Source: Dehalococcoidia bacterium (GTDB lineage: Bacteria > Chloroflexota > Dehalococcoidia > Lucifugimonadales > UBA2962). Taken from it: 64,000 nucleotides of DNA. Under the pieces are notes generated by a model, which saw only the letters and a program-made list of their open reading frames with translations, searched no databases and was not told the origin of the DNA. This document shows positions 1,028 through 41,457 of this stretch, piece after piece. Location: positions 23,092 through 87,091 of the forward strand of contig DAOUKM010000008.1 of NCBI GenBank assembly GCA_034421295.1, given 5' to 3'. The first letter of the stretch is position 1, and the number at the start of each line of letters is the position of its first letter. A program made the position numbers and the translations under genes.

Positions 1028-2440
1028 ATGACGATAAGGTTCGGCACCGACGGCTGGCGAGCCATCATCGCCGACGAGTTCACCTTCGAGAACGTGCGCA
1101 TCTGCGCGCAGGCCACCGCCGACCTTCTCAGGGCCGCGGGGATGGCCGACCGGGGCCTTGTGGTCGGCTATGACACGCGCTTTGCCTCCGACCGCTTCGC
1201 CGGGGCGGTCGCCGACGTCGCGGCCGCAAGCGGCGTGCCCGTCGCCATCAGCCAGGGGCCGGTGCCCACGCCGGTGCTCAGCCACGGGGTCGTGGACCGT
1301 CGGGCCGGCGGCGGGGTGGCGATAACCGCCAGCCACAACCCCGGCCGATACAACGGCTACAAGTTCAAACCGGAGACCGGGGGCAGCGCAACGGACGAGA
1401 CGGTGGCGGAGCTGGAGCGGCTGATCGCCCGGCTGCAGGCCGAGGGGGTCACGACCCGCCCCCCGGTGTCGAGGCCTGCGTCCGTTGAGCGTGTCGACCT
1501 TGTGCCGCGCTACCTTGGCCAGATCGCAGGCCTGGTCGACCTGGACGCGCTTCGATCGGCCGGCCTGAAGGTGGTCGTCGATCCGATGTTCGGCGCCGGC
1601 GGAGGCATGTTCCCACGGCTGCTGGGCGGCGGCGCAACCTCCGTCACCGAGATCCACGGCGAGCCGAACCCGGCCTTCCCGGGAATCGAGCACCCCGAGC
1701 CCATCGGACCCAACCTGGGCGAACTTTCCCGGCGGGTGGTGGCGGAAGGGGCGGATGCGGGGATCGCCAACGACGGAGACGCCGACCGCGTGGGCCTGGT
1801 GGACGAGACGGGCCGCTTCGTAACGACCCTGGAGTCGTTCTCCCTGATCTGCCTTCACCAGCTGGATCTGCTCTCCCGGCGAGGGCCGCTCATCAGGTCG
1901 CTCACGCAGAGCTCGATGATCGACAGGCTCGGAGAGATCTACGGTGTACCCGTTACGGAGACGAAGGTCGGTTTCAAGTACATAGCGCCCCTGTTCGAGT
2001 CGCAGGACGCTCTAGCCGCCGGCGAGGAGAGCGGAGGGTACACGATCAGGGGCCATGTCCCCGACCGCGACGGCATCCTCTGCGGGCTGCTGGTCCTGGA
2101 ACTGATGGCGAGGACCGGCAGGCGGCTAAGCGAGCTCGTCGACTGGCTGTTCGAGCTGGTGGGCCCCCACTTCTACGACCGCGTCGACCTTCAGTTCGAC
2201 CCCCGGCTGCGCGATGTGATCGCGGCCCGCATAACGTCCGCGGCCCCGGCCGAACTGGCCGGGCTGAAGGTGGTGGGAACACGTACCGACGACGGATACA
2301 AGTTCAACCTCGCGGGCGGATGCTGGATGCTGGTGCGCTTCTCGGGCACAGAGCCTCTGCTGCGCACGTACGCTGAGGCCGACTCGCCAGAGCGCGTGGC
2401 GCTGCTCCTTGAGGAGACGCGTCACCTGGCAATCCCTTAA
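1028..2440 (+). CDS. phosphoglucomutase/phosphomannomutase family protein (alpha-D-phosphohexomutase)
   Basis: ATG at 1028 gives MTIRFGTDGWRA. Active-site loop TASHNPGRYNGYK and metal loop NDGDADR are present. The ORF-track start at 902 adds 42 low-complexity codons overlapping metK, so I rejected it. Confidence 0.9.
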   Translation: MTIRFGTDGWRAIIADEFTFENVRICAQATADLLRAAGMADRGLVVGYDTRFASDRFAGAVADVAAASGVPVAISQGPVPTPVLSHGVVDRRAGGGVAITASHNPGRYNGYKFKPETGGSATDETVAELERLIARLQAEGVTTRPPVSRPASVERVDLVPRYLGQIAGLVDLDALRSAGLKVVVDPMFGAGGGMFPRLLGGGATSVTEIHGEPNPAFPGIEHPEPIGPNLGELSRRVVAEGADAGIANDGDADRVGLVDETGRFVTTLESFSLICLHQLDLLSRRGPLIRSLTQSSMIDRLGEIYGVPVTETKVGFKYIAPLFESQDALAAGEESGGYTIRGHVPDRDGILCGLLVLELMARTGRRLSELVDWLFELVGPHFYDRVDLQFDPRLRDVIAARITSAAPAELAGLKVVGTRTDDGYKFNLAGGCWMLVRFSGTEPLLRTYAEADSPERVALLLEETRHLAIP

Positions 2441-2450
2441 ACTTGCGGCC

Positions 2451-5255
2451 ATGACGGCCCAGGGTCCCCTGCTGCTGGTCGACGGTCACGCGCTCGTCTT
2501 CGTCGCCTACAACGCTCTCAAAGAACCCATGACGGTGCGCTCGACGGGCGAGCCGATCGGAGCGGTCTACGGATTCGCAAACTCGCTCCTCAAGACCCTC
2601 TCGGACTTTCAACCCACCCACTGCGCCGTGGCATTCGACCCGCCCGGCCCCACGTTCAGGCACGATCACTATCCCGACTACAAGGCTCACAGGCCCCCTA
2701 CTCCCCCGGACCTGCCGCCGCAGGTCGAGAAGGTAAAGCAGCTGGTTGGCGCGTTCGGCATGCCCATCTACGAGCTGGAGGGCTATGAGGCCGACGACGT
2801 GATCGGCACGCTTTCCCGCCAAGCGGACGAGCGCGGGATCGACACGATCATTCTCACCGTGGACACCGATGCGCTGCAGCTGGTGTCGGAGAGGACGCGG
2901 GTCTACGTGTCGACCGCCTTTAACAGGCGGGTCTTTGATGTCGACGCCGTTCGGGACCGGTATGAGGGCCTTGGACCCGATCGGGTGGCCGACATAAAGG
3001 GCCTTGAGGGCGACAAGTCGGACAACGTCCCCGGCGTCCCCGGCGTGGGCAGAAAGACGGCGATCAAGCTGCTGACCGAATTCGGCAGCGTAGAGGGCAT
3101 ATACGAGCGCATCGAGGACGTGAGGCCCGACGGACTTCGAAAGAGGATGAAGGACAACGAGAGCGAGGCCCGGGAGAGCAAGTACCTTACAACCATCGTG
3201 CGGGACGTCCCGGTGGAGCTGGACCTTGCGGCGGCGGACATGTCGGGTTACGACCGGGATGCGGTGGCAGAGTTCATGCGCGGGCTCGAGTTCCGTTCCA
3301 TCATCGACCGCCTGCCCGCCTCCAGCGCGGACCCGGGACCGGAGAGCGGCGAGCCGAGGGCGCCCGAGGACCGGAGCCCCACCGAATACACGATCGTCGA
3401 CACCCGGGAAAAGCTCGCAGAGATGATCGCCGAGCTGGAAGGGTCGGAGGCCTTTGCGTTCGACACGGAGACCACGTCCGAGCACGCGATGGAGGCCGAC
3501 CTCGTGGGCCTGTCGTTCTCCAACGCCGAGGGCAGGGCATGGTATGTGCCCGTCGGCCACAGGGTTCCCCCCAGGCTGGAGCTTGGAGAGGAGCCGAGGC
3601 AGATCGTGCAGGTGCCCGTGGCGGAGGCGCTCGACGCGGTGCGCTCTCTGTTTGAGAGCGAGTCGATCGGGAAGATAGCCCACAACGCCAACTTCGACGT
3701 GACGGTGCTGGCGAACAGCGGCGTTGCGGTGCGCAACCTCAGTTTCGACACGATGCTGGCCGCCCACCTGGTCGGCCGCCGGGGCATCGGCCTCAAGGCC
3801 CTTGCCTCAAACGTGCTCGGCGAGGAGATGACTCCCATCACGGACCTGATAGGCACCGGCAGAAGCCGGATAACCATGGCCGAGGTCCCCGTCGAGAGGG
3901 CGGGCCCGTACGCCGCGGCTGACGCCGACTTCACCTTCCGGCTTAGCGGCGTGTTCGCCGATGACCTTGCGCGGATGTCGCTGACAGAGCCCTTCGAGAC
4001 ACTGGAGATGCCCCTGGTCGACGTGCTCGTCCGCATGGAGCGCGGAGGCGTCGCCCTGGATGCCGCGCTGCTTCGAGATATGTCCGGAGAGCTGGGCGAG
4101 CGCCTGGCCGGGGTCAGGGGATCGATCTACGAGACGGTGGGCCACGAGTTCAACGTCGGCTCCTCCCAGCAGCTGGCCGGCGTGCTCTTCGACGAGCTGC
4201 GTCTCCCTCCCGTAAAGAAGACCAAGAGCGGCTACTCGACCGATGCAGCATCCCTGGACGCTCTCAAGGAGAGGCTAAACCAGGGCGCGCTCGAGAGCGT
4301 CGACCCCCGGGCTTCCGAGGTGATCGACAGGGTCGTCGAGTTCAGAGAGATCTCCAAGCTCAAGTCCACCTACGTGGACGCACTTCCGGAGCTGGTCCAT
4401 CCGGTGACCGGGCGCATCCACACCAGCTACAACCAGACGGGTTCTGCGACCGGCCGCGTCTCGAGCAACGATCCCAACGTGCAGAACATACCCATCCGCA
4501 CCGAGCTCGGGCGCAGGGTGCGAAAGGCTTTCGTCGCCGAGGGGTCCCCCGACTGGATAATGGTGGGGGCGGACTACTCCCAGATAGAGCTGCGCATCCT
4601 GGCGCACATGTCGGAGGACCCCGGACTGCTGGAGGCCTTCCGTGAGGGCATGGACATTCACGCGATCACCTCGTCACTGGTGTACGAGGTCTCCATCGAG
4701 GAGGTCACCGCCGACATGCGCCGGGTGGCCAAGGTGCTCAACTTCGGAGTCCTCTACGGCCTGACGCCCTACGGCATAATGCAGCAGACCGACCTGACCC
4801 CCGAGCAGGGGCGCCGCTTCATAGACGCGTACTTTTCGAGCTACCCGGGCATTAGGGACTACGTCGACAGCACCATAGAGCGGTGCAGGCAGGCAGGCTA
4901 CGTGGCCTCCCTGATGGGCCGGCGCAGATATCTTCCCGAGATCAACTCTTCCAACCGCTCCGCCCGGCAGGCCGCCGAGCGGGCCGCGGTCAACATGCCG
5001 GTCCAGGGCACGGCGGCGGACATCATCAAGCTCGCCATGCTCAGCGTGCAGGCACGGCTGGACGATATGGACATGAAGACCAGGATGATCCTGCAGGTGC
5101 ACGATGAACTGGTGTTCGAGGCGCCGGACGAGGAGGTCGACTCCCTGGCGGCCATGCTCCGGCTGGAGATGCCGGCCGCAATGGACCTACTGGTGCCCCT
5201 CCAGATCGAACTGAAGGCCGGCCCCAACTGGGGTGAGATGGATCCGCTTTCCTGA
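2451..5255 (+). CDS. polA: DNA polymerase I
   Basis: The 5'-nuclease N-terminus (LLLVDGHALVFVAYNAL), a 3'-5' exo-like middle (FAFDTETTS) and the pol domain (RRVAKVLNFGVLYG, QVHDELVFE) are all present. ATG at 2451 is preferred over 2409. Confidence 0.95.
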   Translation: MTAQGPLLLVDGHALVFVAYNALKEPMTVRSTGEPIGAVYGFANSLLKTLSDFQPTHCAVAFDPPGPTFRHDHYPDYKAHRPPTPPDLPPQVEKVKQLVGAFGMPIYELEGYEADDVIGTLSRQADERGIDTIILTVDTDALQLVSERTRVYVSTAFNRRVFDVDAVRDRYEGLGPDRVADIKGLEGDKSDNVPGVPGVGRKTAIKLLTEFGSVEGIYERIEDVRPDGLRKRMKDNESEARESKYLTTIVRDVPVELDLAAADMSGYDRDAVAEFMRGLEFRSIIDRLPASSADPGPESGEPRAPEDRSPTEYTIVDTREKLAEMIAELEGSEAFAFDTETTSEHAMEADLVGLSFSNAEGRAWYVPVGHRVPPRLELGEEPRQIVQVPVAEALDAVRSLFESESIGKIAHNANFDVTVLANSGVAVRNLSFDTMLAAHLVGRRGIGLKALASNVLGEEMTPITDLIGTGRSRITMAEVPVERAGPYAAADADFTFRLSGVFADDLARMSLTEPFETLEMPLVDVLVRMERGGVALDAALLRDMSGELGERLAGVRGSIYETVGHEFNVGSSQQLAGVLFDELRLPPVKKTKSGYSTDAASLDALKERLNQGALESVDPRASEVIDRVVEFREISKLKSTYVDALPELVHPVTGRIHTSYNQTGSATGRVSSNDPNVQNIPIRTELGRRVRKAFVAEGSPDWIMVGADYSQIELRILAHMSEDPGLLEAFREGMDIHAITSSLVYEVSIEEVTADMRRVAKVLNFGVLYGLTPYGIMQQTDLTPEQGRRFIDAYFSSYPGIRDYVDSTIERCRQAGYVASLMGRRRYLPEINSSNRSARQAAERAAVNMPVQGTAADIIKLAMLSVQARLDDMDMKTRMILQVHDELVFEAPDEEVDSLAAMLRLEMPAAMDLLVPLQIELKAGPNWGEMDPLS

Positions 5256-10760: not shown

Positions 10761-11729
10761 TCAAAAGAGCCTGGTCAATTCACGTTCGATCTCCGAGAAG
10801 GTGGCGAAGGCCTCAAAGCGCGCCGACACCCTGCCCTCCCCATCTATCACGAACGTCCACTCGTTGCTCGGCAGGTTCCAGTCCCAGACCGCCTGGGAAA
10901 TCACCGCCTGATCAAGGTCGCCCTGAATCTCGTGGGGATTATCGTACAGGTCGACGTGAACGAAGTTGGCCCTTTCGCCGTACGTCTCCTGCAGTTCGCT
11001 GAGCACCTCGACCTGCGGACCGCAGACCGCATTTATACAGAAGGCCGGGCTCGCGAACACTACGACCACGGGCCGATCGTCGTCGATCGCATCGGCCAGC
11101 GAGACCCGGTAAAGGTCCGGGTTGTAAAGCGAGCCCGTGGTCAGCTCGGCCGGGCTTGCCACGTCCGCCGCGATCCTGGTCACACTCCGAACCGCCCTCT
11201 CACCCACCCCGGGCGCGGAGGTGTCCCCGGCCACATCGAAGGTAAGCTCGACGATCTCCACGCCTCCGTCCCCGGCGGGGGCCTCTATCGCCAGTCGATG
11301 GGTTCCCGACGCCTGAAACTCCACGAAGGTCGTATACAGGCCGCGAGACCCCACCGGCCAGGGCTGGTAGGCGGCGTCCAGGGGCCCGGCGACCTCCCGC
11401 TCTGCGCCGGGCCCGCCGGCATACAGCGTCACCCGCACGATGGGCTCACTGACAACCCCGCGCGGAGAGATCAGCACGAATCCCAGCCGATGGCGTCCGG
11501 GACTCAGATCGTCGGTGCCCAGTATGGCCTGAAATCCTCCCTCCGTCGTGGGGCCCTCGATCAGCTGGTGATCGTCGGGACGGGGACGGTCGGCGGCCGG
11601 CGAGCCGCCACCGCAGGAGACGACCAGGCCCACGGCGGCAGCGACGAGCAGCCCCGTTGCGACGGCACGGACCGAGGATATGGAGGTGCCGGCCCCGGAC
11701 CCGGGTGTTCTACAGGTTCTTGAAGACAC
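10761..11729 (-). CDS. thioredoxin-fold lipoprotein with an N-terminal beta-sandwich-like domain
   Basis: Signal peptide and lipobox-like LVVSCGGG. The C-terminal thioredoxin-like region has SPAFCINAVCGPQ. Start is uncertain: GTG at 11729 (20-nt overlap with the upstream gene) or GTG at 11792 (83-nt overlap). There is no ATG option. Confidence 0.75.
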   Translation of the reverse strand: MSSRTCRTPGSGAGTSISSVRAVATGLLVAAAVGLVVSCGGGSPAADRPRPDDHQLIEGPTTEGGFQAILGTDDLSPGRHRLGFVLISPRGVVSEPIVRVTLYAGGPGAEREVAGPLDAAYQPWPVGSRGLYTTFVEFQASGTHRLAIEAPAGDGGVEIVELTFDVAGDTSAPGVGERAVRSVTRIAADVASPAELTTGSLYNPDLYRVSLADAIDDDRPVVVVFASPAFCINAVCGPQVEVLSELQETYGERANFVHVDLYDNPHEIQGDLDQAVISQAVWDWNLPSNEWTFVIDGEGRVSARFEAFATFSEIERELTRLF

Positions 11730-13116
11730 CGAATGTGAACGCGAAGAACTCGAAGTGGTCCGAGTTTGACGCCAGCTTGAGTTCGTATCCACCGTACTCA
11801 GGGGTCCTGGCGACGCGGTACATCCGGTCCTCGTTCACGAGCAGGTAGCTGTTGCCCTCATCGTCCCACATCACGTCCTCGCCGGCGTGGTCTGCGGGTA
11901 TGGGGCCACCATCGATCGTAACGCGTACCTCGTAGAAATCCCCGGACTCCGGCAGGCCCAGGACTATGTTGGCGCTGGTTCCATAGAACTTGATGGCCAC
12001 ATAGTCCTCGTAGGCCTCGGTCGTTCTGGCGTGCCTGAGGCTCTCGGGTCCGTTGAGCCACAGGCCGTTCAGATAGATGAAGTGGTTCTCGTGCACCCCG
12101 GGGTCCGCGTACTCGAGCGCCATATCCTGCCTAGCGTAGTACTGCTCGTGACGCACGTAGGGGGGTTGGCCGCCGAAGCGCAGGGCGCTGTAGTTGCGCT
12201 CGGTGCCGGCGTAAAGCTCCCTTGTGACCGACATCTGGGGATCATCTATGCGAAGCGCCGCCTCCTCGTAGTCCCTGGTCGGCAGGATCTCAGAGTCGTC
12301 CATGCTGACCTGCCCGCCGTTCTCGGCGAGAAGTTCCCTGATCTTCAGCTCCGTCTCCTCGTAGGCCCCCTCCCCGAAGTGCGCGTATCGAATGTAGCCG
12401 TCACGATCGATCAGGTACTTCGCAGGCCAGTAGCGGTTGTTGTAGTTGCGCCATGTCCCGAAGTCGTTGTCCTGGACGATGCGGTACTCAAGGCCGAACT
12501 CTGCGGCCGCCTGCTCGACATTGGCCCGCTCCTTCTCAAAGGCGAACTCGGGCGAGTGCACACCGACTATCGCAAGGCCGTCGGCGGCGTACTTTGCGTG
12601 CCAGTCCTTCAGGTAAGGAAGGGTGCGAATGCAGTTGATGCAGGTGTAGGTCCAAAAGTCGATCAGAATCACCTGGCCGTCCAGGTCTTCCAGCGTGAAC
12701 GGCTCGGCGTTGATGAAGCCGGAAGGATTCTTGATGTCGGGCCGGAACAGCTCGTTCCCCAGCCTGTTGAGGGCTGCCAGATTGTCCGGGTTGGCATCCG
12801 CCGGGGCCAGGGTGTCCTCTGCGGCCTGGTCGTCGCCATCGGCCACCTCGCCCGATCCCGTGGTCCCGTCCCCCAGGGCCTCGTCGATGAATCCCTCCAG
12901 CGTGTTAGTTGCAGTCCTGTCGGCGGGCGGTGATTCGTCTCCGCCGCAGGAGGCCGCCCCCGCGAGCAGGAGGGCCGCCAGCACGGTGACAACGGCCGCA
13001 AGAATCCCGCCTGGCAGGTGCGACCCGCCCAGGCCCTCAGCGCGAACGATCCCCCGAACGATCCTAGGTGACGATTGGTGTGTCCTCACGGTTCCCCCAC
13101 TCTCGGAATGAGCCAT
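11710..13116 (-). CDS. DipZ C-terminal-like thiol:disulfide oxidoreductase (TlpA/ResA-type thioredoxin domain plus C-terminal beta-sandwich), probable lipoprotein
   Basis: [16 protein letters not shown] CxxC motif, AhpC/TSA-like fold ([24 protein letters not shown]), and a C-terminal ...FEFFAFTFG tail typical of DipZ-like proteins. Signal [14 protein letters not shown] at 13116 with AGGA 6 nt upstream; GTG at 13089 is an alternative. Confidence 0.85.
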
Positions 13117-13924
13117 CGTAGTTCCTGACCTTGTCGTAGCCCAGAAGGGTAAGGGTGAACATGCCGTGCGCCGCACGGATGCCGCCCTGTCAGTACGTTG
13201 TGATCCTCTTGTCCGGGGCGGCTCCCACAGCCTCGAGCTTGCTGCGAAGCTCGGAGGCATGCCTGAACTCCTTGACATCGTCGTCGGTAACGAACTCCAG
13301 CCATTCCAGGTGCTTGGCTCCCGGCATGCGGCCGGCGCGGGCGTTGCCTCTGTCGTTCTCCCCGGTGTACTCCCCTACTGACCTTACGTCCAGCAGGACT
13401 TCGCCGGATTCGCCGCCGGCACCCGTGCCCTCCCCTATGCACTCGCGCATGATCTGATCGGCGGTGGCTATGAGTGATGGATTCGGATCAGGGCTGAACT
13501 CTGCGGGCGTGATCTCGGGCCTGGCGTCGGCGATCGGCCGCCTCTCTCGCAGCCACTTGCGCCAGCCGCCGTCCAGCACCTTCACCCGATCATGGCCGTA
13601 GTAGGTCAGCGCCCACCAGAGCCTGGTCGCCCACAGGCTTCCGAAGTCGTCGTAGGCCACGACAAGCGTGTCATTGCCGATCCCCAGCTCGCTCATCTCC
13701 TTAGCGAACTGCTCGGGCGTATCGATGAAGGTACGGTCGCTCGTCGGGTCCTTGAAGTAGTGGTCGCGCCGGACGCCGACGGCGCCCGGGATGTGTGCAC
13801 GCGTGTAAGACTCCCAGAACCCCGTGTCGACTATGCGTATGCCCGGCTCCAGCAGGTGGCGCTCGAGCCAGTCGGTGTCGGCCAACAGCTCGGGCCTGGA
13901 GTATCCCTTTTCTGTGACGCCCAT
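13064..13924 (-). CDS. two-domain rhodanese (thiosulfate/3-mercaptopyruvate sulfurtransferase family) with in-frame TGA at the catalytic Cys position; candidate selenoprotein
   Basis: ORF 13190..13948 ends ...DKRITTY-TGA. The same frame continues [41 protein letters not shown] to TAG at 13066-13064. That completes the C-x-x-G-x-R active-site loop and the conserved NYDGSxxEWG end. ATG at 13924 has GGGGGG 8 nt upstream. A hairpin follows the TGA (next feature). Confidence 0.75.
13158..13183 (-). promoter_or_regulatory. SECIS-like stem-loop downstream of the in-frame UGA
   Basis: mRNA sense: UGA CAGGGCG-GCAU-CCGUGC-GGC-GCACGG-C-AUGU. The upper stem is 6 perfect bp (13178-13173 with 13169-13164) and the loop is G-rich. 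The lower stem is 4-5 bp with one bulged C. The upper stem starts 11 nt after UGA and the loop about 17 nt after it. Confidence 0.55.
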
Positions 13925-14016
13925 GTTTGCATCCCCCCGTGCCGTCATTTTCTGCTAACGGGCGCTCTGCGCCAGCTCTGAGCGACGGCCCTACAGTGGA
14001 TGTTAGCACCGGTATA

Positions 14017-28398: not shown

Positions 28399-29331
28399 GT
28401 GAAAGTGCCCAGCGATTCACAGCCAATAGTCAGGGGATCCGCACTCGTAAAGAACTACGGGGATCTCGTGGCGGTAGACGGCATCGACTTCAGGGTGGAG
28501 AAGGGGGAGTGCTTTGGCTTCCTCGGCCCCAACGGTGCCGGCAAGACCACGACCCTGAGGATGGTGACGTGCGTGTCGCCGGTAACCTCCGGGGCACTGA
28601 CCGTCGCCGGCCTAGACGTGCGCACCTCTTCCCGCGCCATAAAGGCGAGGCTCGGCGTCGTCTCGCAGGCCGACAGCCTCGATCCGGACCTGAGCGTGAT
28701 CCAGAACCTGATCGCCTTCTCGCGCTACTTTGACCTTCCCGGAGATGTCGCCCGCAGGCGTTCCCTAGAGGCACTGGACCTGTTCCAGCTGCGCGAGAAG
28801 GCCGACCGCAAGCCGGACGAACTTTCGGGCGGCATGAGACGGCGCCTGCTGATCGCCCGCGCACTCCTGCACGAGCCCGAGGTGCTGGTGCTCGACGAGC
28901 CAACCACCGGTCTGGATCCTCAAACGCGGCTGCTGGTGTGGGACAAGCTGACCAGCCTGAAGTCCGAGGGCATAACGATGCTGCTGACCACCCACTACAT
29001 GGAGGAGGCGGCATATCTGTGCGACCGGCTCGTAGTGATCGACCACGGCCGCATACTGGTCGAGGGGACCCCGGCTGACCTGATCAGGCAACAGGTGGGC
29101 GGCGAGGTCCTCGAGGTGCGCGTCAGCTTTGGCGATAAGCCGTCCATCCTCGAGCGGCTGAGCGGCTGCGGCGCCAGGGTCGAGGACCGCGGCGAGTCGC
29201 TGGTGGTATACGGCTCGGCCAACGGGGCGCTCGAGGCCGGGGCCCTCGACGGCCTCGAGGTCACCTCCCGGCCCGCCAACCTGGAGGACGTGTTCCTTCG
29301 ACTCACCGGCAGGGGGCTGAGGGACGAATGA
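28399..29331 (+). CDS. ABC transporter ATP-binding protein (DrrA/NodI-like, ABC-2 subfamily)
   Basis: Walker A GPNGAGKTT, signature LSGGMRRRL, Walker B LVLDEPTTGLD. GTG start. Confidence 0.92.
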   Translation: MKVPSDSQPIVRGSALVKNYGDLVAVDGIDFRVEKGECFGFLGPNGAGKTTTLRMVTCVSPVTSGALTVAGLDVRTSSRAIKARLGVVSQADSLDPDLSVIQNLIAFSRYFDLPGDVARRRSLEALDLFQLREKADRKPDELSGGMRRRLLIARALLHEPEVLVLDEPTTGLDPQTRLLVWDKLTSLKSEGITMLLTTHYMEEAAYLCDRLVVIDHGRILVEGTPADLIRQQVGGEVLEVRVSFGDKPSILERLSGCGARVEDRGESLVVYGSANGALEAGALDGLEVTSRPANLEDVFLRLTGRGLRDE

Positions 29332-31229: not shown

Positions 31230-32066
31230 CTACCGTAGTGCCAGATCGCCGCCCGTGGTGACCTTCGTTCGGCTGTCGAGGAGTATGCTTCCGTCCTCGT
31301 CCAGGTCGAGGTTGCCCTTAGTGTCCTCGTACTGGTCCTCGCCCCGGTACGGGGTGCCGCGTATCTCCCTGGTCACCGCCTGGGTGACCTTGCGGATCTG
31401 GTCGAACGGCTCGAACTCGCCTCCGAGCCAGGCCTTCCAGCTACCCTCGGTCAGGTCGAACTCCCAGTAGAAGTAGACCGCGGCCTTCCAGGGCTGTGCC
31501 GGCGCGTAGCGCTCGTCCACGCCTTCCGTGAACCTCACCCATGGCCGCTCGTCGGAGTCATACCACTCCGTGGTCTCCACTATTCGCCTGAAGGGGATCT
31601 CCATCTCGGTGAACGCCGCTGAGAACTCAGGCGCCAGCTCACCCAGCTGGGCCACCGCGTACTTGTTGATCGTTCCGGAGTCGCCTTCATACAGGGTGCC
31701 GTAGTCCTTCGCACCTGAGGCCGACCAGCCCGCAGGAGCCGCGACAAGGTGGACGGAGCAGTCGGCAATGCCCGAGGCGGCGTCGGCGAGAGACATGGAC
31801 CTGACCCGCGTCGGATAGCTGAAGCCGAACTCGGCCAGGTACTCGATCACGTGAGCGGTCGTCGACCCGTGCTCGGCCTCCTCCGTTATCTGGGCAACCA
31901 CCACGGTACCGCCGCCCTGGTTGGCGCAGGCACCGGTTTCCAGCGCGGCCAGCCCATCCCTGGCTCCACCGCCGTCACCACCACCCCCGCACGCAACCGC
32001 GGCCAGTCCGATGAGTAGTAGAAAGGTCAGTGCCACCCATCGCAGGCGCGCGCTAAGCCTCGTCAT
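31230..32066 (-). CDS. secreted lipoprotein, possibly substrate-binding (function uncertain)
   Basis: Signal peptide with lipobox LAAVACGGG. The mature part is Trp/Tyr- and acid-rich. A resemblance to OpuAC/ProX-type binding proteins is only an impression. Confidence 0.6.
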   Translation of the reverse strand: MTRLSARLRWVALTFLLLIGLAAVACGGGGDGGGARDGLAALETGACANQGGGTVVVAQITEEAEHGSTTAHVIEYLAEFGFSYPTRVRSMSLADAASGIADCSVHLVAAPAGWSASGAKDYGTLYEGDSGTINKYAVAQLGELAPEFSAAFTEMEIPFRRIVETTEWYDSDERPWVRFTEGVDERYAPAQPWKAAVYFYWEFDLTEGSWKAWLGGEFEPFDQIRKVTQAVTREIRGTPYRGEDQYEDTKGNLDLDEDGSILLDSRTKVTTGGDLALR

Positions 32067-32151
32067 TGTGCCAAGGTCCCCCGTCCGAAGATGGCGCTAA
32101 TGATAACACCACGCCGCCGCATATCGGCGGCTCTACCCGGCCGGACCGCGC

Positions 32152-33504
32152 CTATGGAATGGGAACCCTGGCGGCCGGACTCAGGGCGGTCCGGCCGCGG
32201 TCTGCCGAATACGATTCCAGGAGCGTTTCTGCCGTCCGGACAGCGGTCGACAGGTTGGTCGCCATGTAATCGCCAAGCATGATTTCCGCCTCCCGGCCGC
32301 GCTGACTGGAGAGCAGGCGGGCCGCCTCGGCGGCGAGCGGGTAAGCCGTCTCAAGGAGCTGCGACTGGAGCCCCGCCCAGCGCGCCCTGACCTCGGCCGC
32401 GCGGCGCCCGGGATCCTCGGACACCGCGCCGGCCAGGCGCCGAAAGGTCCACCAGACGCTGTCCGAGGTGGGCTCTGCGCCCCCCAGAGACAGGGAGGCG
32501 GGTAGCTCGCCCTGCAGGAAGACCGGGAGGAAGACGCCCAGACAGGGCGAGTACATGCTGGTCCAGAATATCGGGAGACGGCTGCCGTCGTCGCACAGGT
32601 CGGCCACCAAGCTGGCGGCAGTGTTGCCACCGGCTCCATCGCCCCCGACCGAGTGCATGCAGATGCCGCGCCCCGGGTCGATGTCGGTGACGAAGCCTCC
32701 CGGTTCGGAGTCTCCGTCCGCATGATCCGAGAGCAGGGCCATCATCACCCCGACGTCGATGCGTCCCTCATGCCGGGCGAGCACCCCGCACGACCGCGTG
32801 CGCCTGAGGAATCCGCTGCCGGAAAGGTGATCGCCCTCCGCGAAGGCCTGCGCGAAAGACAGCCGCCCGCCGCTCCGCCCGGTCTCGGCGGCGGTCTCTT
32901 CGGCGCCCGGTGAGATCCGGTCCCAGTCACCGGTGATCGAGTAAACGTTGCTGATCGCCGCGTGCGTCGCGACGCTGCGCACCGCCCACTCGTGTCCCGC
33001 CGTCTCGATCACATAGGCCTCGCCGGGGTCGGCGACGATAAAGCCGTTGTCGTAGGTGCGGTGACCACCCGGATGCTCGAATTCCCCCTGCCCGTGCTCG
33101 GCGACCGCAGCGGTGATGACCTCCACCGCCTCTGCGGCCGTGGCTCCACGCTCAAGTCCCAGACGCACCAGGTCCATCCCCACCAGGGTCGGTCCCGACG
33201 GCCGCAGCCTGGACCGGAGGGCCTCGTTGCCGACCACGACCTGGTGCTCGTTAAAACCGTGCTCATAGCCCCAGCACCAGTACGGGCGTGACCCGACGTG
33301 CCGATGGGTCACCTCAGCCTGCGGCATGTCGACGAAGGGGGTTCTAAGCCTCGCCCCCGCAGGATGCTCCGCGCGTCCGTGCGGCTCAAGCGGCTGGCAC
33401 TCATCGGCCGGCCGGTCGGAGTTCTTGGCGAAGATGGCGTGTCCGTCCCGCGTCGCCGGGCCGAGCGCCACGAAGGTGTCGCAGCCGGTCGGCGCTCTAG
33501 TCAC
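32152..33504 (-). CDS. peptidase C69/secernin-like Ntn hydrolase
   Basis: N-terminal nucleophile context CDTFVALGPATRDGHAIFAKNSDRPADECQ resembles secernin/C69 dipeptidases. 450 aa. Confidence 0.7.
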   Translation of the reverse strand: MTRAPTGCDTFVALGPATRDGHAIFAKNSDRPADECQPLEPHGRAEHPAGARLRTPFVDMPQAEVTHRHVGSRPYWCWGYEHGFNEHQVVVGNEALRSRLRPSGPTLVGMDLVRLGLERGATAAEAVEVITAAVAEHGQGEFEHPGGHRTYDNGFIVADPGEAYVIETAGHEWAVRSVATHAAISNVYSITGDWDRISPGAEETAAETGRSGGRLSFAQAFAEGDHLSGSGFLRRTRSCGVLARHEGRIDVGVMMALLSDHADGDSEPGGFVTDIDPGRGICMHSVGGDGAGGNTAASLVADLCDDGSRLPIFWTSMYSPCLGVFLPVFLQGELPASLSLGGAEPTSDSVWWTFRRLAGAVSEDPGRRAAEVRARWAGLQSQLLETAYPLAAEAARLLSSQRGREAEIMLGDYMATNLSTAVRTAETLLESYSADRGRTALSPAARVPIP

Positions 33505-34716: not shown

Positions 34717-36672
34717 TCAGTTGGTGCGCCCCCCGGCACTGTATCCTCCGACGTACCTGAGCAGGCCTCCGGCCAGCAAGATCTGGCGCTGCCGGTCGCT
34801 CAGCGTGACGGTCGCGCGTATGGTCAGGCCCATGGCTGCTTCCGCAATAGTGACCGAGGTCGCGCCCGTTTCCACCGCCGACCTTGCATCCTCCAGGACG
34901 AGCCTCTGGCCCTGCTCGAGCGATGCGAAGTCGGACTCGTCCGCAAAGGTCAGCGGCATTATCCCGTAGTTGACCAGATTGTCCCGGTGTATGCGGGCGA
35001 ACGACTTTGCGAGTATGAATCCCACGCCAAGGTATGCGGGCGAGAGCGCGGCGTGTTCCCTGGAGCTGCCCTGTCCGTAGTTCTCGCCGGCAACTATGAC
35101 CCCTCCTCCGGCGGACCTGGCCCTCTGTGCAAATCCCTTATCCAGGTAGGCGAACACGTGCTCCGAAATGGCAGGCACGTTCGAGCGCAGAGCAAGTGTC
35201 GTCGCTCCCGCGGGGAGGATGTGATCGGTGGAGATGTTGTCCCCGAGCTTGATCAGGACCTGCCCGCCGATCGACTCGGGCATGGGCCTGCCGGCCGGTA
35301 TGGGCTTTATGTTGGGGCCGCGCCGGATAGCGACCGATTCGGGATCATCGGCCGGTGGGATGATGCCGGAATCGTCCGTCGTGAACCGCTGCGGCATCTC
35401 CATGGACCCGGAGCCGCGGGCGTAGTCCCGCGGATCCGCTATGCAGCCCGCCACCGCGGTAGCGGCGCACACGGCGGGAGAGGCCAGGTACACGCTGTTC
35501 TCCAGGCCGCCGGAGCGACCCGGGAAATTGCGGTTGAAGGAACGTACCGAGACCGCCCCGTGGCGCGGCACCTGACCGATGCCCGCACACGGCCCGCAGG
35601 CGGACTCAAGGAGACGCACTCCCGCCTGGACGATATCGGCCAGCGCTCCGTCCTGTGCTATCAGCTGCAGGACCTGGCGCGACCCCGGGCTCATCACCAT
35701 GGTCACCCCGGGGTGGACGGTGCGCCCCCTGAGCATCGAGGCGACCTCCGAAAGATCGGCAAACGACGAGTTGGTGCAGCTTCCCACCGCAACCTGGTCT
35801 ACCGGCGTGCCCTTGAGCTCGGCCACGGGGACCACGGCGTCCGGGCTATCCGGGCAGGCTATGAGCGGCTCGAGGGCCGCAAGGTCTATGGACATCGACT
35901 CGTCGTAAGCGGCATTTTCGTCTGCTGAGAGCTCCCTGTAGGCTTCGCCCCTTCCCTGCCTGGTCAGGTAGTCAAGGGACATCGGGTCACTCGGAAAAAG
36001 GGAGGTCGTCGCCCCCAGCTCGGCCCCCATGTTGGCAATGGTCGCCCTCTGAGGGACGGTCAGGGTCGCCACGCCCGGCCCGTGGTACTCGAGGATGCGT
36101 CCGATTCCGCCCCTGACAGATAACCTTCGCAGGAGCTCAAGGATCACGTCCTTGGCCGACACCCCGGGTGCAAGGGCACCGGTCAGCTCGACCCCCACCA
36201 CGAGCGGCATGCTCATGTAGTAGGGGCCGCCTGCCATCGCCGTTGCAACATCCAGTCCGCCGCAGCCTATTGCCAGCGAGCCCATGCCTCCGCAGGTCGG
36301 CGTATGCGAGTCGGTTCCGATCAGGCTGGCTCCGGGGACCGCGAACCGCTCAAGGTGCACCTGGTGGCAGATGCCGTTGCCCGGCCTCGAGAAGTAGACC
36401 CCGTACCTGGCCGCCACGTCCTGCAGATAGGCATGGTCATCGGCGTTGCGATAGTCGGCCTGCAGCATGTTGTGATCGACATAGCTGACGGAAAGGTCCG
36501 TCTTTACGCGATCGACCCCGGTGGCCTCCAGCTGCAGGTAGGCCAGCGTGCCGGTGGCATCCTGCGAGAGCGTCTGGTCGACGCGGATCGCGATCTCCTC
36601 ACCCGGTGTCATGTGCCCGGATACCAGGTGGTCGCCCAGAAGCTTGTGCGTCAGGTTCCGCGGTTCAGACAT
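34717..36672 (-). CDS. aconitase-family hydratase (short ~650-aa type)
   Basis: IGTDSHTPTCGG, VGSCTNSSFADL, ACGPCAGIGQ cluster ligands, and a C-terminal swivel domain ENYGQGSSREHAALSP. Confidence 0.9.
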   Translation of the reverse strand: MSEPRNLTHKLLGDHLVSGHMTPGEEIAIRVDQTLSQDATGTLAYLQLEATGVDRVKTDLSVSYVDHNMLQADYRNADDHAYLQDVAARYGVYFSRPGNGICHQVHLERFAVPGASLIGTDSHTPTCGGMGSLAIGCGGLDVATAMAGGPYYMSMPLVVGVELTGALAPGVSAKDVILELLRRLSVRGGIGRILEYHGPGVATLTVPQRATIANMGAELGATTSLFPSDPMSLDYLTRQGRGEAYRELSADENAAYDESMSIDLAALEPLIACPDSPDAVVPVAELKGTPVDQVAVGSCTNSSFADLSEVASMLRGRTVHPGVTMVMSPGSRQVLQLIAQDGALADIVQAGVRLLESACGPCAGIGQVPRHGAVSVRSFNRNFPGRSGGLENSVYLASPAVCAATAVAGCIADPRDYARGSGSMEMPQRFTTDDSGIIPPADDPESVAIRRGPNIKPIPAGRPMPESIGGQVLIKLGDNISTDHILPAGATTLALRSNVPAISEHVFAYLDKGFAQRARSAGGGVIVAGENYGQGSSREHAALSPAYLGVGFILAKSFARIHRDNLVNYGIMPLTFADESDFASLEQGQRLVLEDARSAVETGATSVTIAEAAMGLTIRATVTLSDRQRQILLAGGLLRYVGGYSAGGRTN

Positions 36673-37864
36673 CGGGGGATCCAGAGGCCCTGAGCTGCGA
36701 TGGTTGCCTCAGCCTTGACTGCGGGATCAGGACGTTTCCCTCCATGATGCGCCGGGCCGTGCGGTAGGTCGTTACCGTTGGAACTCGCCACCGCTCACCG
36801 TCGGGCTCGACCGTGCAGTCGATCTGCATGACCCCCGCGGGGTGGCCGATCCGCAGCGGCCCCGAGGCTGCTCCCATCGCCGCCTCCGAGACCAGTGTAC
36901 CGTCGATTCTCGCCGCCACGGCTGTCGCCATCGATACGCTCGCCGGGTAGGTCCGATGAAAACGCTCCATTGACACTGCGCGGGCGAGAATATCCATGTC
37001 GGCGGCCGTCACGCGCCTTCCGTCGGAGGTCTCATAGCCCGCGGGCGGCGCGATCAGGGCGACCTTGGGCACCGCCCGCAGCCGCGCGTGGGCCTCCTCA
37101 GGCGTCTCGCACAATCCCATCCGCACGGCGCCCATGCAGCGGACCTCCTCCAGGCACCTCCCCAGGCCGGTCTCGTCGTCGAGTTCGGCAGCGGTTGCCC
37201 GCGGGTCCGCCCCGACGTCGGAGGCGCGAACGAACACCGAGGGGATGGCGACGTCAACGATGGAGATCGCCAGGCTCCTCCCGGACGGCAGATCCACGCA
37301 TTCGCGGGAGGCACCCGTCGGTAGCGCCCCCCCGCCCTGGGATCCGGCGGGGTCGATATATTCGAGGTCGATTCGGGCGCCGGTGCCCGGCACCCCGTCT
37401 ATGGCGAACTCGCCCTCCGAGACCGACCGACCGCTCCTCACCGGCACGCGGGTGATAAAGCGCCTGTCCGAGTTGACCGCCAGTACACGCACCTCCGTCA
37501 CCGGCTCCATTGCGCTGACCAGTCCCTCGTCAATCGCGAACGGTCCGACGGCGGACGAAATGTTGCCGCAGGTTCCCGACCAGTCTACGAACGGGCGCTC
37601 TACATCGACCTGCGCGAATTCGAACTCTACATCAACGTCCGGCAGGTTCGAGGGCGATATGATCGCCGCCTTGCTGAGCGAAGAGGTGCCGCCACCGAGT
37701 CCGTCGACCTCGCGCCCGTTCGGGTCGGGACTGCCGAGGGCCGTCAGGATGACGGCATCTCGCTCGGCAGCGCCGAATCCGGCCAGGTCGCGGCCGTGGA
37801 ATAGCACCGCGCGGCTGGTGCCGCCACGAACGAAGACGGCGGGGATCCTCAGGTCCGCAGTCAA
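36665..37864 (-). CDS. prpF: PrpF-family protein (2-methylaconitate cis-trans isomerase-like)
   Basis: LRIPAVFVRGGTSRAVLF N-terminus typical of PrpF, 399 aa. Overlaps the aconitase start by 8 nt and the citrate-synthase stop by 4 nt. Confidence 0.8.
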   Translation of the reverse strand: MTADLRIPAVFVRGGTSRAVLFHGRDLAGFGAAERDAVILTALGSPDPNGREVDGLGGGTSSLSKAAIISPSNLPDVDVEFEFAQVDVERPFVDWSGTCGNISSAVGPFAIDEGLVSAMEPVTEVRVLAVNSDRRFITRVPVRSGRSVSEGEFAIDGVPGTGARIDLEYIDPAGSQGGGALPTGASRECVDLPSGRSLAISIVDVAIPSVFVRASDVGADPRATAAELDDETGLGRCLEEVRCMGAVRMGLCETPEEAHARLRAVPKVALIAPPAGYETSDGRRVTAADMDILARAVSMERFHRTYPASVSMATAVAARIDGTLVSEAAMGAASGPLRIGHPAGVMQIDCTVEPDGERWRVPTVTTYRTARRIMEGNVLIPQSRLRQPSQLRASGSPDV

Positions 37865-39006
37865 TCGCCACCATCTAGTCTTCTATCCCGATCACCTACG
37901 TAGAGGGCCCTCGGGCGTATCAGGCGGTTGTTGGCGTACTGCTCGGCGATGTGCGCCGACCAGCCGGCCACCCTTGCAGAGGCCACCACATTGGTCATCA
38001 GGTTCATCGGGAAGCCCAGCTGGAACAGCACCGGCGCGGCAAAGTAGTCCACATTCGGGATGATCCCCTTGGTCTCGGCCATCCGTCTCTCCGTCGCGAT
38101 CGCTATATCGAACCATCTGCGGTCGTCAACCGCGCCCGCCATCTGCAGTGCCATCTCGCGAAGCTCCGCGGCCCTGGGGTCTCCGGTCCTGTACACGCGG
38201 TGGCCAAAGCCGGGCAGTTTGCGCCTGGCCGCCAGTGCCTCGTCTACGTAGGCGGCGGCAAGGTCGGGTTGACCGATATCCACCAGCATGTTCATCGCAT
38301 CGTCGATGGCGCCGCCGTGCAGGGCGCCCTTGATCGCGCCTATCCCCGCGACGACGGCCGAATAGTAGTCGGACATGGTCCCCACCACCACCCGGCAGGC
38401 GAACGTGGAGGCATTTGTCTCATGCTCGGCATAGAGCACCAGGGCCGCATCAAACGCCCGCCTGAACGGCTCTGCCGGAGCCTTGCCCGAGACCATGTAC
38501 AGGTAGTTCTCTGCATGCCCGAGCTCCGGCCCGCGGGGAGCGATGGGCTCGTGGCCGGCCTGGATGCGCACCTGGGCCGCAACGATCGCAGGGAGCTTTG
38601 CGATCAGCGCCTTTGAAGTGGCGAGCAGGTGTTCCTGATCCACCATCTCTGCGTCGGGTTCCAGCACGCCCATAAGTGAGACGGCCGTGCGTAGCACCGC
38701 CATTGGATGGGCGGTCGGGGGCGCGGAGCGAAGCACGTCCAGAACGGGGCCGGGCAGCTCACGCTCGGCGGCCAGTTCGGCACTGAAGGCTGATAGCTGC
38801 CCGGGCGTCGGCACGGTTCCGCTCATGAGCAGGTAGGCCATCTGCTCATAGCCAAGGTTGTGGGCAAGATCGGCGATGTCGTAGCCGCGGACGCTGAACT
38901 CTGGAGCGTGTCCGTCTATGTAGGCAACCCTGGACTCGAACGCCAGCACGTCCTCCAGGCCGTAAGAGACCGCCGGGCGTTCGCTAGACTCGCTGCCCGC
39001 CAACAC
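37861..39006 (-). CDS. prpC: citrate synthase/2-methylcitrate synthase
   Basis: Signature GFGHRVYRTGDPRA, 381 aa (short type). GTG start. The prpC assignment rests on the operon context with prpF. Confidence 0.8.
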   Translation of the reverse strand: MLAGSESSERPAVSYGLEDVLAFESRVAYIDGHAPEFSVRGYDIADLAHNLGYEQMAYLLMSGTVPTPGQLSAFSAELAAERELPGPVLDVLRSAPPTAHPMAVLRTAVSLMGVLEPDAEMVDQEHLLATSKALIAKLPAIVAAQVRIQAGHEPIAPRGPELGHAENYLYMVSGKAPAEPFRRAFDAALVLYAEHETNASTFACRVVVGTMSDYYSAVVAGIGAIKGALHGGAIDDAMNMLVDIGQPDLAAAYVDEALAARRKLPGFGHRVYRTGDPRAAELREMALQMAGAVDDRRWFDIAIATERRMAETKGIIPNVDYFAAPVLFQLGFPMNLMTNVVASARVAGWSAHIAEQYANNRLIRPRALYVGDRDRRLDGGD

Positions 39007-39012
39007 TCCCCC

Positions 39013-39978
39013 CTAGCCTGCCAGCGGCCCCGCCGCGGTCGCCCCCACCTGCGGCCCAGGGCTGGTGCCTCGGACGGTCAGGGCTCCGAAGCGGGCACCG
39101 TACATATCAGAAAGCACACCCAGAAGGGCCATTACCTGGGGCGGATACGAGTCGGCGAGCTTGAGCAGGAGACTGGTCTGCAGGACGACGCGATTCTCAG
39201 GGCCCAGCGAGATCGTTCGCAGCCCGCCGCGCGCCACCTCCCTCCGGATCGCGCTCCTGGGCAGAAAGGAGATTCCGATTCCCAGCTCCACCATGTGCTT
39301 GGTGGCATCGATGCTGTCGAGCCTCATCTCGACCCTGGGCTGAATGCCCTCGCGGCGGCAGTAGGTCTGTATGAGGCGAAAGTAGGCCGAGCCGGGATCG
39401 TACAGGATGAAGGGCTCCTGGGCGACCTCTGCCAGACTGGCTGCGCCCAGGGTTGCAAACCGGTGGCCGGGGTGGGTGACCAGGACGACCTCCTCGTCGT
39501 AGAGGTGCGTTGTCACCACGTCCTCATGCCTGAGCTCACGCGCAAATCCCAGCTGGACCTGCTCGCCGACCACCATGTGGAGGACGTCCCTCGATCGGCC
39601 TACGGTTATGTGCGCCTTTATATCCGAGTGCCGCCGCCGGAGGCGCTCAAGGATCGCCGGGAGCGTGTAGGTGCCTATGTTCCGCGCAGCGGCTATCGTC
39701 AGCAGGCCGCCCGAAGCGCCGCGGCCTGTAGCCAGGACTTCGCGGCCCTCGCGCAGGGACTGAAGGGCGCTCTGGGCGTAGGGCAGGAAAGCCTTGCCCA
39801 TCTCGGTGAGCCGGACGCCCCGACCGGCGCGGTGAAAAAGGGGCACGCCCAGCTCTTCCTCAAGCGTGCGGATCCTCGTGCTCACCGATGGCTGGGAAAG
39901 ATGAAGCGAGATGGCGGTCTGACGAAAGCTGCCCTTGTCGGCGGCAACCAGGAATGACTCTAGCTGATGCAGTTCCAT
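39013..39978 (-). CDS. LysR-family transcriptional regulator
   Basis: MELHQLESFLVAADKGSFRQTAISLHLSQPSVSTRIRTLEEELGVPLF HTH domain. ATG at 39978 is preferred over 40056. It is divergent from the isocitrate lyase gene. Confidence 0.9.
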   Translation of the reverse strand: MELHQLESFLVAADKGSFRQTAISLHLSQPSVSTRIRTLEEELGVPLFHRAGRGVRLTEMGKAFLPYAQSALQSLREGREVLATGRGASGGLLTIAAARNIGTYTLPAILERLRRRHSDIKAHITVGRSRDVLHMVVGEQVQLGFARELRHEDVVTTHLYDEEVVLVTHPGHRFATLGAASLAEVAQEPFILYDPGSAYFRLIQTYCRREGIQPRVEMRLDSIDATKHMVELGIGISFLPRSAIRREVARGGLRTISLGPENRVVLQTSLLLKLADSYPPQVMALLGVLSDMYGARFGALTVRGTSPGPQVGATAAGPLAG

Positions 39979-40027
39979 CTCGTAGTCACCTCGCGCTCGA
40001 CCATGAGCGAGATATAGAGAACTCTTA

Positions 40028-40066
40028 TATATCCGATAACCTATTGGGCCTGTCAATTATATCCGA
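40028..40066. promoter_or_regulatory. candidate LysR operator repeats in the divergent intergenic region
   Basis: TATATCCGA occurs at 40028-40036 and 40058-40066 (30-bp period). The first copy is embedded in TTATATATCCGATAA, an imperfect dyad of the kind LysR-type regulators bind. The region is locally AT-rich. Confidence 0.35.
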
Positions 40067-40116
40067 CGGCGGCTTAACTATGAGCATCGGACACTACTAG
40101 GGGCTGGAGTCGGTAC

Positions 40117-41457
40117 ATGGAGAACGGACAACGCAACGGGCACGGCAGGGTTTCGTCGGGCCGGCCGATCGGGCAGGCCGAGGAGCTAGAACTGCGGTGG
40201 GCCACAGATCCCAGGTACAACGGGATCAGGCGAGACTACATGGCCGGCGACGTGGTGTCGCTGCGCAATTCGCTGAAGGTAGAGCATACCCTGGCGACGC
40301 ATGGCGCAAGTCGCCTCTGGGAAGCGCTGAACTCCGAAGATTACGTTCACACCTTCGGGGCCCTCACCGGCACCCAGGCGGTTCAGATGGTTGCCGCAGG
40401 CCTCCGGGCGATATATGTCAGCGGGTGGCAGGTGGCGGCCGACGCCAACAATGCCGGGCACACCTACCCGGACCAGAGCCTGTACCCGTCCTCCAGCGCG
40501 CCCGACCTGGTCAGGCGAATCAACAACGCGCTGCTGCGCCGCGAGCAGGTCGACCTGTTGCAGGGGAAAGCAGGCAAAGAGTGGATCGCACCGATCGTCG
40601 CCGATGCAGAGGCCGGTTTTGGCGGGCCTATCCACGCCTTCGAACTGATGAGGTCGATGATCGAGGCCGGCGCGGCCGGCGTCCACTTCGAGGACCAGCT
40701 GGCCGCCGAGAAAAAGTGCGGCCACATGGGCGGCAAGGTTGTGGTGCCGACCTCCACATTCGTTCGCACCCTGAAGGCGGCCCGCCTGGCCGCGGACGTT
40801 CTGGACGTTCCAACCGTGCTGCTGGCGAGAACCGACGCCCTGGCCGCGAGGTTGCTCACAAGTGACATAGACGAGCGTGACCGCCAGTTCCTGACCGGCG
40901 AGCGCACCGAAGAGGGCTATTTCGTAGTGACCGGAGGCATCGAGTCGGCGATAGCGCGCGGTCTCGCCTACGCTCCCTACGCGGATGTGATCTGGTGCGA
41001 AACGTCCCTTCCGGATATTGAAGAGGCAAGGGAATTCGCCAGGGGGATCCACGCCAGATACCCGGGGAAGCTCCTGGCCTATAACTGCTCGCCGTCCTTT
41101 AACTGGACCAAGGCGATGAGCGGATCCGAAATCGCGAGCTTTCAGCAGGAGCTGGGAGAGATGGGATACCGCTTTCAGTTCATCACCCTGGCCGGGTGGC
41201 ACTCGCTGAACCTGAACACCTTCGAACTCGCCTCCGCCTACAGGGACGAGGGAATGAGCGCCTACGTTAGGTTGCAGGAGCGCGAGTTCGCCCAGCAGGC
41301 CGCTGGCTACACGGCCGTCCGTCACCAGCAGGAAGTGGGTGCCGGTTTCTTCGACCGGGTACTGGCCACCGTGTCCGGCGGAGAGGCCGCGACCGCCGCC
41401 CTGGCCGGCTCTACCGAGGCCGCGCAGTTCGAGAGTCGGGTCGCCGTAGCGGACTAG
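40117..41457 (+). CDS. aceA: isocitrate lyase
   Basis: ICL signature [12 protein letters not shown], 446 aa, GGAG 7 nt upstream of the ATG. Confidence 0.93.

Follow-up and report, generated by a model that had tools for sequence, protein, structure and literature searches.

A family of selenoproteins related to the rhodaneses was predicted in 2005, when the survey of the Sargasso Sea selenoproteome by Zhang, Fomenko and Gladyshev described the new family 'Rhodanese-related sulfurtransferase, COG2897' together with a predicted selenocysteine insertion sequence (SECIS) element (PMC1088965). The supplement to that survey contains three sequences (AACY01016424, AACY01314374 and AACY01110644), in which selenocysteine (Sec, written u) is found in the context ...TY-u-QGGIRAAH... 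or ...TY-u-QAGVRAAH... (PMC1088965). Eight such rhodanese sequences, assigned to cd01449, appear in the Global Ocean Sampling (GOS) metagenome paper of 2008 (PMC2398784), and a review from 2022 has the entry COG2897 (SseA) (PMC9312934). A further review, from 2026, includes a rhodanese 'form 4, UxxG', for which it cites the same source, and places it under 'predicted' rather than 'experimentally verified' (PMC13188914). Here we describe a two-domain rhodanese gene that carries an in-frame TGA in a 64,000-nucleotide stretch of a Dehalococcoidia genome (contig DAOUKM010000008.1), the whole of which is referred to below as the window. The gene is an ordinary member of the selenoprotein family published in 2005, and, judged by its motif and the cited source, this family is most likely the 'form 4, UxxG' of the 2026 review. 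The initial annotation of this DNA had mentioned rhodanese-related sulfurtransferases in lists of marine metagenomic selenoproteins, and both the 2005 and the 2008 papers do indeed list them (PMC1088965, PMC2398784).

The window gene resembles the Sargasso/GOS family in its UxxG active-site motif, in a C-terminal ...YDGSxxEWAN... tail, in the core of a hairpin 3' of the UGA and the offset of that hairpin from the codon, and in having a marine or uncultured host; nothing of substance differs. The DNA of the 2005 supplementary sequences carries the hairpin core CGUGC-GGC-GCACG at a UGA offset equal to that of the window, and the longest of the set, AACY01110644, is, in the catalytic domain, 41% identical to the window protein (E = 7e-45). 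Membership was compared against these supplementary sequences, and the database clusters contained no accessions matching the exemplars of the reviews. The window copy is set apart by its GC-rich Dehalococcoidia lineage and by a short Gly-rich insert between the domains, whereas the Sargasso/GOS exemplars are short AT-rich fragments without host assignment or gene context.

Other rhodanese-domain selenoproteins likewise harbor Sec in, or next to, the active-site loop. They encompass the single-domain forms 1-3 of COG0607 (UxxS, UxxG and CxU; NF041203, rhodanese_LYCAU) and the rhodanese/DsbD fusion TsoB (PMC13188914). Forms 1-3 and TsoB were also predicted by the same comparative logic as the family considered here, but they have single-domain or fusion architectures and other motifs. 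The NF041203 model gives the window protein only 22.6 bits against a cutoff of 115.

Also related are the Cys-type two-domain rhodaneses, the thiosulfate and mercaptopyruvate sulfurtransferases (TST and MST), which include Thermus thermophilus rhodanese (1UAR), Mycobacterium tuberculosis SseA (3HZU), Escherichia coli SseA (1URH) and bovine rhodanese (1RHD). In common with the window protein, they are composed of two PF00581 domains, and their catalytic residue opens a six-residue loop in the C-terminal domain. The difference is that the window gene has UGA, and thus predicted Sec, in place of the catalytic Cys. The classical active-site loops are CRKGVT in TST and CGSGVT in MST. Those of 1UAR and 3HZU read CRIAER and CRIGER, as against U-QGGIR in the window protein.

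The gene and its catalytic codon

The list of open reading frames (ORFs) contains a 252-aa ORF on the minus strand (13190..13948) that starts with an ATG at 13948 and stops at a TGA at 13192-13190, immediately after the residues ...DKRITTY. Past this TGA the frame remains open for 41 more codons before it reaches a TAG at 13066-13064. The initial annotation had given the gene the span 13064-13948, and the ORF coordinates on which this was based are correct, but comparison with homologues moves the start to 13924. This second ATG (MGVTEKGY...) is likely the true start, because homologues begin MAVKDKGY and because a G-rich, Shine-Dalgarno-like stretch precedes it. With this start the conceptual product attains the length of about 286 aa that had been proposed (Table 1). 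The ORF list, the translation and Pfam all agree with the earlier description of a two-domain rhodanese ORF that stops after DKRITTY, and retranslation bears out that the 41 open codons supply the missing part of the active-site loop and of the C-terminus.

When the TGA is read as Cys, Pfam recognizes two rhodanese domains in the conceptual product (PF00581, 6.8e-33; two stretches, 113.6 bits). It aligns along its full length with 1UAR (residues 7-284, 1.5e-53), as it also does with 3HZU. The alignment with homologues that the initial annotation had suggested places Cys in the TGA column: this is the catalytic Cys of 1UAR and 3HZU, and the column is also Cys in the full-length homologues P0010, P0013, P0024 and P0107. 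The UGA opens the six-residue loop of the C-terminal catalytic domain. The N-terminal half corresponds to the inactive repeat that is usual in rhodaneses, and a signal peptide is absent. On the basis of its sequence, the product is a cytoplasmic two-domain rhodanese-type sulfurtransferase of the COG2897/SseA type, with predicted activity.

TGA is an ordinary stop codon in the window. It terminates 13 of some 42 other ORFs that have a high GC content at third codon positions (GC3), and thus there is no genome-wide reassignment of the codon. The genes that end in this way include polA (2409-5255), prpF (36665-37864) and the gene for an ABC ATPase (28399-29331), the same three that the initial annotation had named in making this point. 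A read-through scan of the window, with 195 raw candidates, revealed no second TGA-interrupted gene. All those candidates with high GC3 on both sides of the stop could be explained, either as antisense shadows of real genes or as neighboring genes that happen to share a frame.

Every one of the closest proteins in the database (57-89% identity) is 234-245 aa long and ends at ...(T/S)TY, whereas more distant ones are full length, at about 277 aa, and have Cys at the TGA position. The DNA of the truncated protein matches was examined together with 160 related loci from species-representative genomes and metagenomes, and the 157 loci that carry the QGGIRAA motif form the basis of the count of TGA and Cys forms. 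The catalytic codon is TGA in 130 of these and TGC or TGT in the remaining 27. In the TGA-type (Sec-type) loci the TGA is followed by QGGIRAA and by about 41 codons to the stop. They come from many metagenome-assembled genomes (MAGs), the hosts being Dehalococcoidia/SAR202, with several closed chromosomes, Candidatus Binatia, Gemmatimonadota, Thermodesulfobacteriota and Deltaproteobacteria, and Entotheonella. The nearest relatives of the window are MAGs of Dehalococcoidia, one of which (the complete chromosome OZ244723.1) has a 92% identical orthologue. The TGA, the 41-codon extension and a hairpin of the bacterial SECIS type are kept in homologues at 46-92% identity.

The extension is not only open but also constrained. 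It is free of stops for 38 codons past the TGA in 129 of the 130 Sec loci, and the ratio of nonsynonymous to synonymous differences (pN/pS) is about 0.25 overall (129 Sec loci, random pairs). In codons 10-38 pS is 0.74, with synonymous differences near saturation, and pN is 0.19. Such a low pN beside a nearly saturated pS indicates that the codons past the TGA are translated and that purifying selection acts on them. The initial annotation had held that a lack of conservation in the 41 downstream codons would speak against its reading, and they are in fact conserved.

These observations bear on whether the gene is simply a pseudogene, or a normal Cys rhodanese in which TGC or TGT has mutated or been miscalled in sequencing or assembly. 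TGA is a single base away from either Cys codon, the database copies are truncated, and some of them are labelled 'partial'. However, the same TGA and extension are found in 130 independent loci, which is far beyond chance, and these loci are spread across assemblies, sequencing technologies and phyla. The downstream codons are under purifying selection with neither stops nor frameshifts, and the Sec-specific RNA hairpin described below is conserved. The explanation is effectively refuted, and we regard it as exceedingly improbable.

The NCBIfam 3-MST equivalog reaches 125.7 bits with the window protein, which is under its cutoff of 250 and assigns no substrate class; no NCBIfam model reaches cutoff for the full-length window rhodanese, and the searched databases therefore store Sec-type genes as truncated ORFs. 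The Sec-type database entries (P0001-P0012, P0043, P0074 and clusters) exist only in this form, at 234-245 aa, and are named 'thiosulfate/3-mercaptopyruvate sulfurtransferase' or 'rhodanese-like... partial', which amounts to a systematic mis-annotation of the family.

A conserved hairpin 3' of the UGA

Bacterial SECIS elements are stem-loops that directly follow the UGA on its 3' side and have a G in a small apical loop (PMC1088965, PMC9312934). The window hairpin (Table 1) resembles the prototype, that of E. coli fdhF, in being a stem-loop within the coding sequence, directly 3' of the UGA, with a small G-containing apical loop. It differs in its 3-nt GGC loop and in having no obvious bulged U. 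In E. coli fdhF the minimal upper hairpin is separated from the UGA by 11 nt, as it is in the window gene.

RNAfold gives the region 13152..13188 a minimum free energy (MFE) of -19.2 kcal/mol (z = -2.2), and the hairpin core occurs only once in the window. The exact 15-nt core is found in 119 of the 130 Sec loci. The Cys-type genes, which encode the same invariant peptide I-R-A-A-H, act as the control for constraint imposed by the protein. The full set of six pairs is found in 104 of the 112 unique Sec sequences, compared with only 2 of the 25 unique sequences of the Cys type. Numbering the U of the UGA as 0, the contrast can be followed at single synonymous sites within these two sets: site +17 is U in 106 of the Sec and 3 of the Cys sequences (Fisher p 5e-17), site +20, the loop G, is G in 109 and 11 (p 5e-10), and site +23 is G in all 112 and in 14 (p 8e-10). 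Only 5% of the Arg codons in the genes of the window are CGU, the codon that the U17-A25 pair requires. The residue after the His is Gly (GGN) in the Sec forms and mostly Ala (GCN) in the Cys forms, and thus G27 and G28 are available in the former to pair with C15 and C14.

Synonymous differences follow the same pattern, with pS falling to 0.28 in the nine hairpin codons, compared with 0.74 further downstream. When the named structure is imposed on the loci, pairing is seen in 94% of cells; sliding the register lowers this to 15-67%. Double changes are seen at two pairs. Compensatory changes affect the closing pair, which is C-G in the window, A-U in three loci including Entotheonella, and G-C in the Sargasso contig AACY01016424. 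Taken at the level of sequence, these patterns indicate that the hairpin structure is selected specifically in UGA-containing genes.

The hairpin also bears on the suggestion that the real product is a 244-aa truncated protein without the catalytic residue, in which case the hairpin would be an attenuator or an mRNA stability element placed before the thioredoxin-like gene downstream. Inactive rhodanese domains do exist, and the hairpin, rich in GC, precedes a gene with the same orientation. Yet there is no U run after the hairpin, and it is conserved in clades with a wholly different downstream gene. To judge from the structure of 1UAR, truncation would also cost the protein its active-site loop and the last part of its catalytic domain, and the retention of QGGIR and NYDGSxxEWGN within the 41 codons at their low pN/pS of about 0.25 would be senseless if these were untranslated. 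A truncated product of this kind is accordingly given next to no credence.

In a rough neighbor-joining tree analyzed by parsimony, the sampled subfamily has Sec at its root, and around seven switches between Sec and Cys are needed. One TGC homologue, on the metagenome contig Ga0101943_1000111 (L099), still has the Gly that follows the His, and its hairpin core of the Sec type, CCGTGCGGCGCACGG, is intact. This looks like a fossil SECIS left by a recent Sec-to-Cys switch, and the presence of an intact hairpin in a Cys-type gene resembles the remnant SECIS elements described earlier (PMC1794560).

A small subclade of metagenome contigs with the peptide RAAQSALTLK (L096, L097, L117, L132, L150 and L153) is without the usual hairpin. 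These contigs have another stem of 7 bp, C(A/G)GCGCA-GUC-UGCGCUG, which lies 19-35 nt after the TGA and is shifted 5 nt downstream. Its 3-nt loop likewise begins with G, and A-U and G-U alternate at one of its pairs.

Decoding of the UGA and its consequences

The TGA, the selected extension, the hairpin with its Sec-specific synonymous constraint and the membership of a published family are all established here by comparison of sequences, and homologues share the first three. Together they support the proposal of the initial annotation, and the UGA at the catalytic position of this two-domain rhodanese is very probably decoded as Sec. We infer that the window organism carries out this decoding with SelB and tRNA-Sec, and the selenium content of the protein and the nature of its substrates are predicted on the same grounds.

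Several points weigh against this assignment. The folding energy of the hairpin region has a z of only about -2 relative to shuffled sequences, and the mean MFE of Sec forms (-17.7 kcal/mol) is poorly separated from that of Cys forms (-15.1 kcal/mol). RNAalifold, run on 53 Sec sequences, returned a meaningless consensus of two pairs and recovered neither the hairpin nor the lower stem, and the named structure with its slid-register controls was used in its place. There is little covariation, since the hairpin hardly varies and the conserved peptide dictates part of it. The case for a SECIS thus rests on register, conservation and the contrast between Sec and Cys forms, and not on thermodynamics. 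In the 64-kb window ARAGORN and Rfam found no tRNA-Sec, giving only tRNA-Asp and tRNA-Val, and Pfam scans of 30 further window proteins found no SelA, SelB or SelD. Finally, according to the 2026 review, selenium has not been seen at the protein level in any member of the family (PMC13188914). The initial annotation had stated that it knew of no biochemical characterization; none of the Sec-rhodanese family was found in the literature, and the same review keeps the rhodanese forms as predicted.

A tblastn search of 165 sequences (0.9 Mb, short flanks) with unverified E. coli SelA, SelB and SelD queries gave no matches and is uninformative. A genuine tRNA-Sec with the anticodon UCA (Rfam RF01852, 73.8 bits) is found in a Candidatus Binatia MAG (L012; CBDCRK010000012.1, 1728-1823), 1.2 kb upstream of a TGA-type rhodanese (3001-3807). 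The neighbors of this tRNA-Sec are a MaoC dehydratase and a SPOR-domain protein, and not sel genes. In BSepDB, MAGs of Dehalococcoidia have 46-49 selenoproteins each and so rank near the top of all bacteria for selenoprotein content (PMC13326102), and selenoproteins have been recorded in Chloroflexi since 2006 (PMC1794560).

It might still be that the UGA is translated as something other than Sec, either as Cys through a mis-acylated or Cys-accepting tRNA with the anticodon UCA that SelB delivers at the same hairpin, or through near-cognate read-through as Trp or Cys. The conserved extension and hairpin reveal translation rather than the identity of the inserted residue, Cys works at the catalytic position in relatives, and the 64-kb window, as mentioned, lacks visible Sec machinery. 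Nevertheless, a single change from TGA to TGC is enough to yield Cys, and such switches have occurred some seven times in the tree; the retention of TGA and a costly hairpin across at least five phyla therefore implies a benefit that is specific to Sec. Trp or Gly would kill the rhodanese active site. Moreover, one copy has a genuine tRNA-Sec nearby and Dehalococcoidia are rich in Sec, whereas Mukai et al. 2017 has no UGA-to-Cys system in Dehalococcoidia. Insertion of a residue other than Sec is thus considered very unlikely.

If Sec is inserted, the route would be as follows. The UGA at 13192-13190 would be bypassed as a stop, with the hairpin 11 nt downstream acting as a bacterial SECIS that recruits SelB carrying Sec-tRNA(Sec). 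Sec would then be incorporated, and translation would continue for 41 codons to the TAG. In the enzyme the selenolate of Sec245 is expected to attack a sulfane-sulfur donor, giving an enzyme-Se-S(-) intermediate, which would hand its sulfur to an acceptor and so complete the rhodanese ping-pong cycle. In comparison with Cys, Sec would offer a lower pKa, greater nucleophilicity and a better leaving group.

The practical value of these observations lies mainly in annotation, as probably active enzymes are recorded without their catalytic residue in many genomes of Dehalococcoidia, SAR202, Binatia and other uncultured groups. The Sec form is much the commoner of the two in the set of close relatives (130 loci versus 27 with Cys), the predicted SECIS is almost invariant across phyla, and Sec and Cys have been exchanged repeatedly. 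The family therefore represents a clean natural system in which to ask what Sec gives to a sulfur-transfer enzyme. A comparison of the Sec and Cys enzymes would be new; the existence of the selenoprotein is not.

Gene neighborhood and other features of the window

Table 1. Coordinates in the window of the rhodanese gene, the elements predicted within it and the genes that follow it.
Feature	Position	Strand	Description
Predicted selenocysteine rhodanese, full coding sequence	13064..13924	-	286 aa; Sec = residue 245 (predicted); ATG 13924-13922, TAG 13066-13064
In-frame UGA, predicted Sec codon	13190..13192	-	Position of the persulfide-forming catalytic Cys; loop U-Q-G-G-I-R
41 codons 3' of the UGA	13067..13189	-	Remainder of the active-site loop (QGGIR) and conserved C-terminus NYDGSxxEWGN
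Apical hairpin of the predicted bacterial SECIS	13164..13178	-	6-bp stem CCGUGC/GCACGG, loop GGC, 11 nt after the UGA
Extended lower stem (AGGG.../...CCCU) around the apical hairpin	13152..13188	-	RNAfold; weak support, sequence varies between homologues
Lipoprotein-type thioredoxin-fold CxxC (C-I-N-C) thiol:disulfide oxidoreductase, TlpA/ResA-like, Thioredoxin_10 C-terminal	11710..~13040	-	Pfam, NCBIfam; start uncertain
Conserved ORF, 320-343 aa	10761..11792	-	Synteny; no Pfam or NCBIfam match
Conserved ORF, 105 aa	10398-10715	-	Downstream of the thioredoxin-like gene; no Pfam or NCBIfam match

The gene directly downstream of the rhodanese, on the same strand, encodes the TlpA/ResA-like protein, the translation of which contains a signal/lipobox sequence, ...LLLAGAASC, and the stretch FWTYTCINC. 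It is syntenic in two of the related loci (L001 and L003) and in a JGI contig. In total it is a neighbor in 13 loci, four of which are Cys-type. As it is also kept in the Cys-type sister clade in SAR202, the association is not specific to Sec. Between the rhodanese stop and the signal peptide (window 11710-13063, minus strand) there is no in-frame ATG, GTG or TTG for this gene, and in relatives the gene callers start it inside the rhodanese extension.

The two conserved ORFs that follow, of 343 and 105 aa, keep their synteny even where the rhodanese of a relative shows just 57% identity. An adh_short gene is found divergently oriented upstream of the rhodanese in the window's clade. Elsewhere the neighbors vary by clade, and Sec-rhodaneses have no universal operon partner among the loci compared. 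In 27 Sec loci of another Dehalococcoidia clade (L028 and 26 others), an arylsulfotransferase-like gene (ASST; PF05935 1.7e-19, PF14269) lies directly 3' of the rhodanese on the same strand at a median distance of 45 nt; this sulfur-related neighbor is not the one found in the window.

A more speculative role for this arrangement is that the Sec-rhodanese of the Dehalococcoidia/SAR202 lineage is no generic sulfurtransferase but serves in the cytoplasm as the entry to a module dedicated to chalcogen trafficking, with the CxxC lipoprotein and the 343-aa protein in the same pathway. We consider this unlikely. Were it true, a Se-S or Se-Se adduct would pass sulfane sulfur or selenium to partners, for example toward selenophosphate synthesis.

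The remainder of the window contains a methylcitrate-cycle-like cluster at 34717-41457. On the minus strand it has genes for an aconitase-family protein, PrpF and a citrate-synthase-family protein; it further includes a LysR regulator and, oriented divergently, an isocitrate-lyase-family gene. Two adjacent ORFs with high GC3, of 278 and 450 aa (31233-33504, minus strand), have no Pfam match at E <= 1e-5. In one of the loci syntenic with the window (L003; ENA contig ctg495339, 7271-8985) a gamma-glutamyltranspeptidase is split into two ORFs of 390 and 181 aa with a 4-nt overlap. Relatives of this locus have a single gamma-glutamyltranspeptidase gene of 550-569 aa, and the split may be a frameshift or an assembly error.

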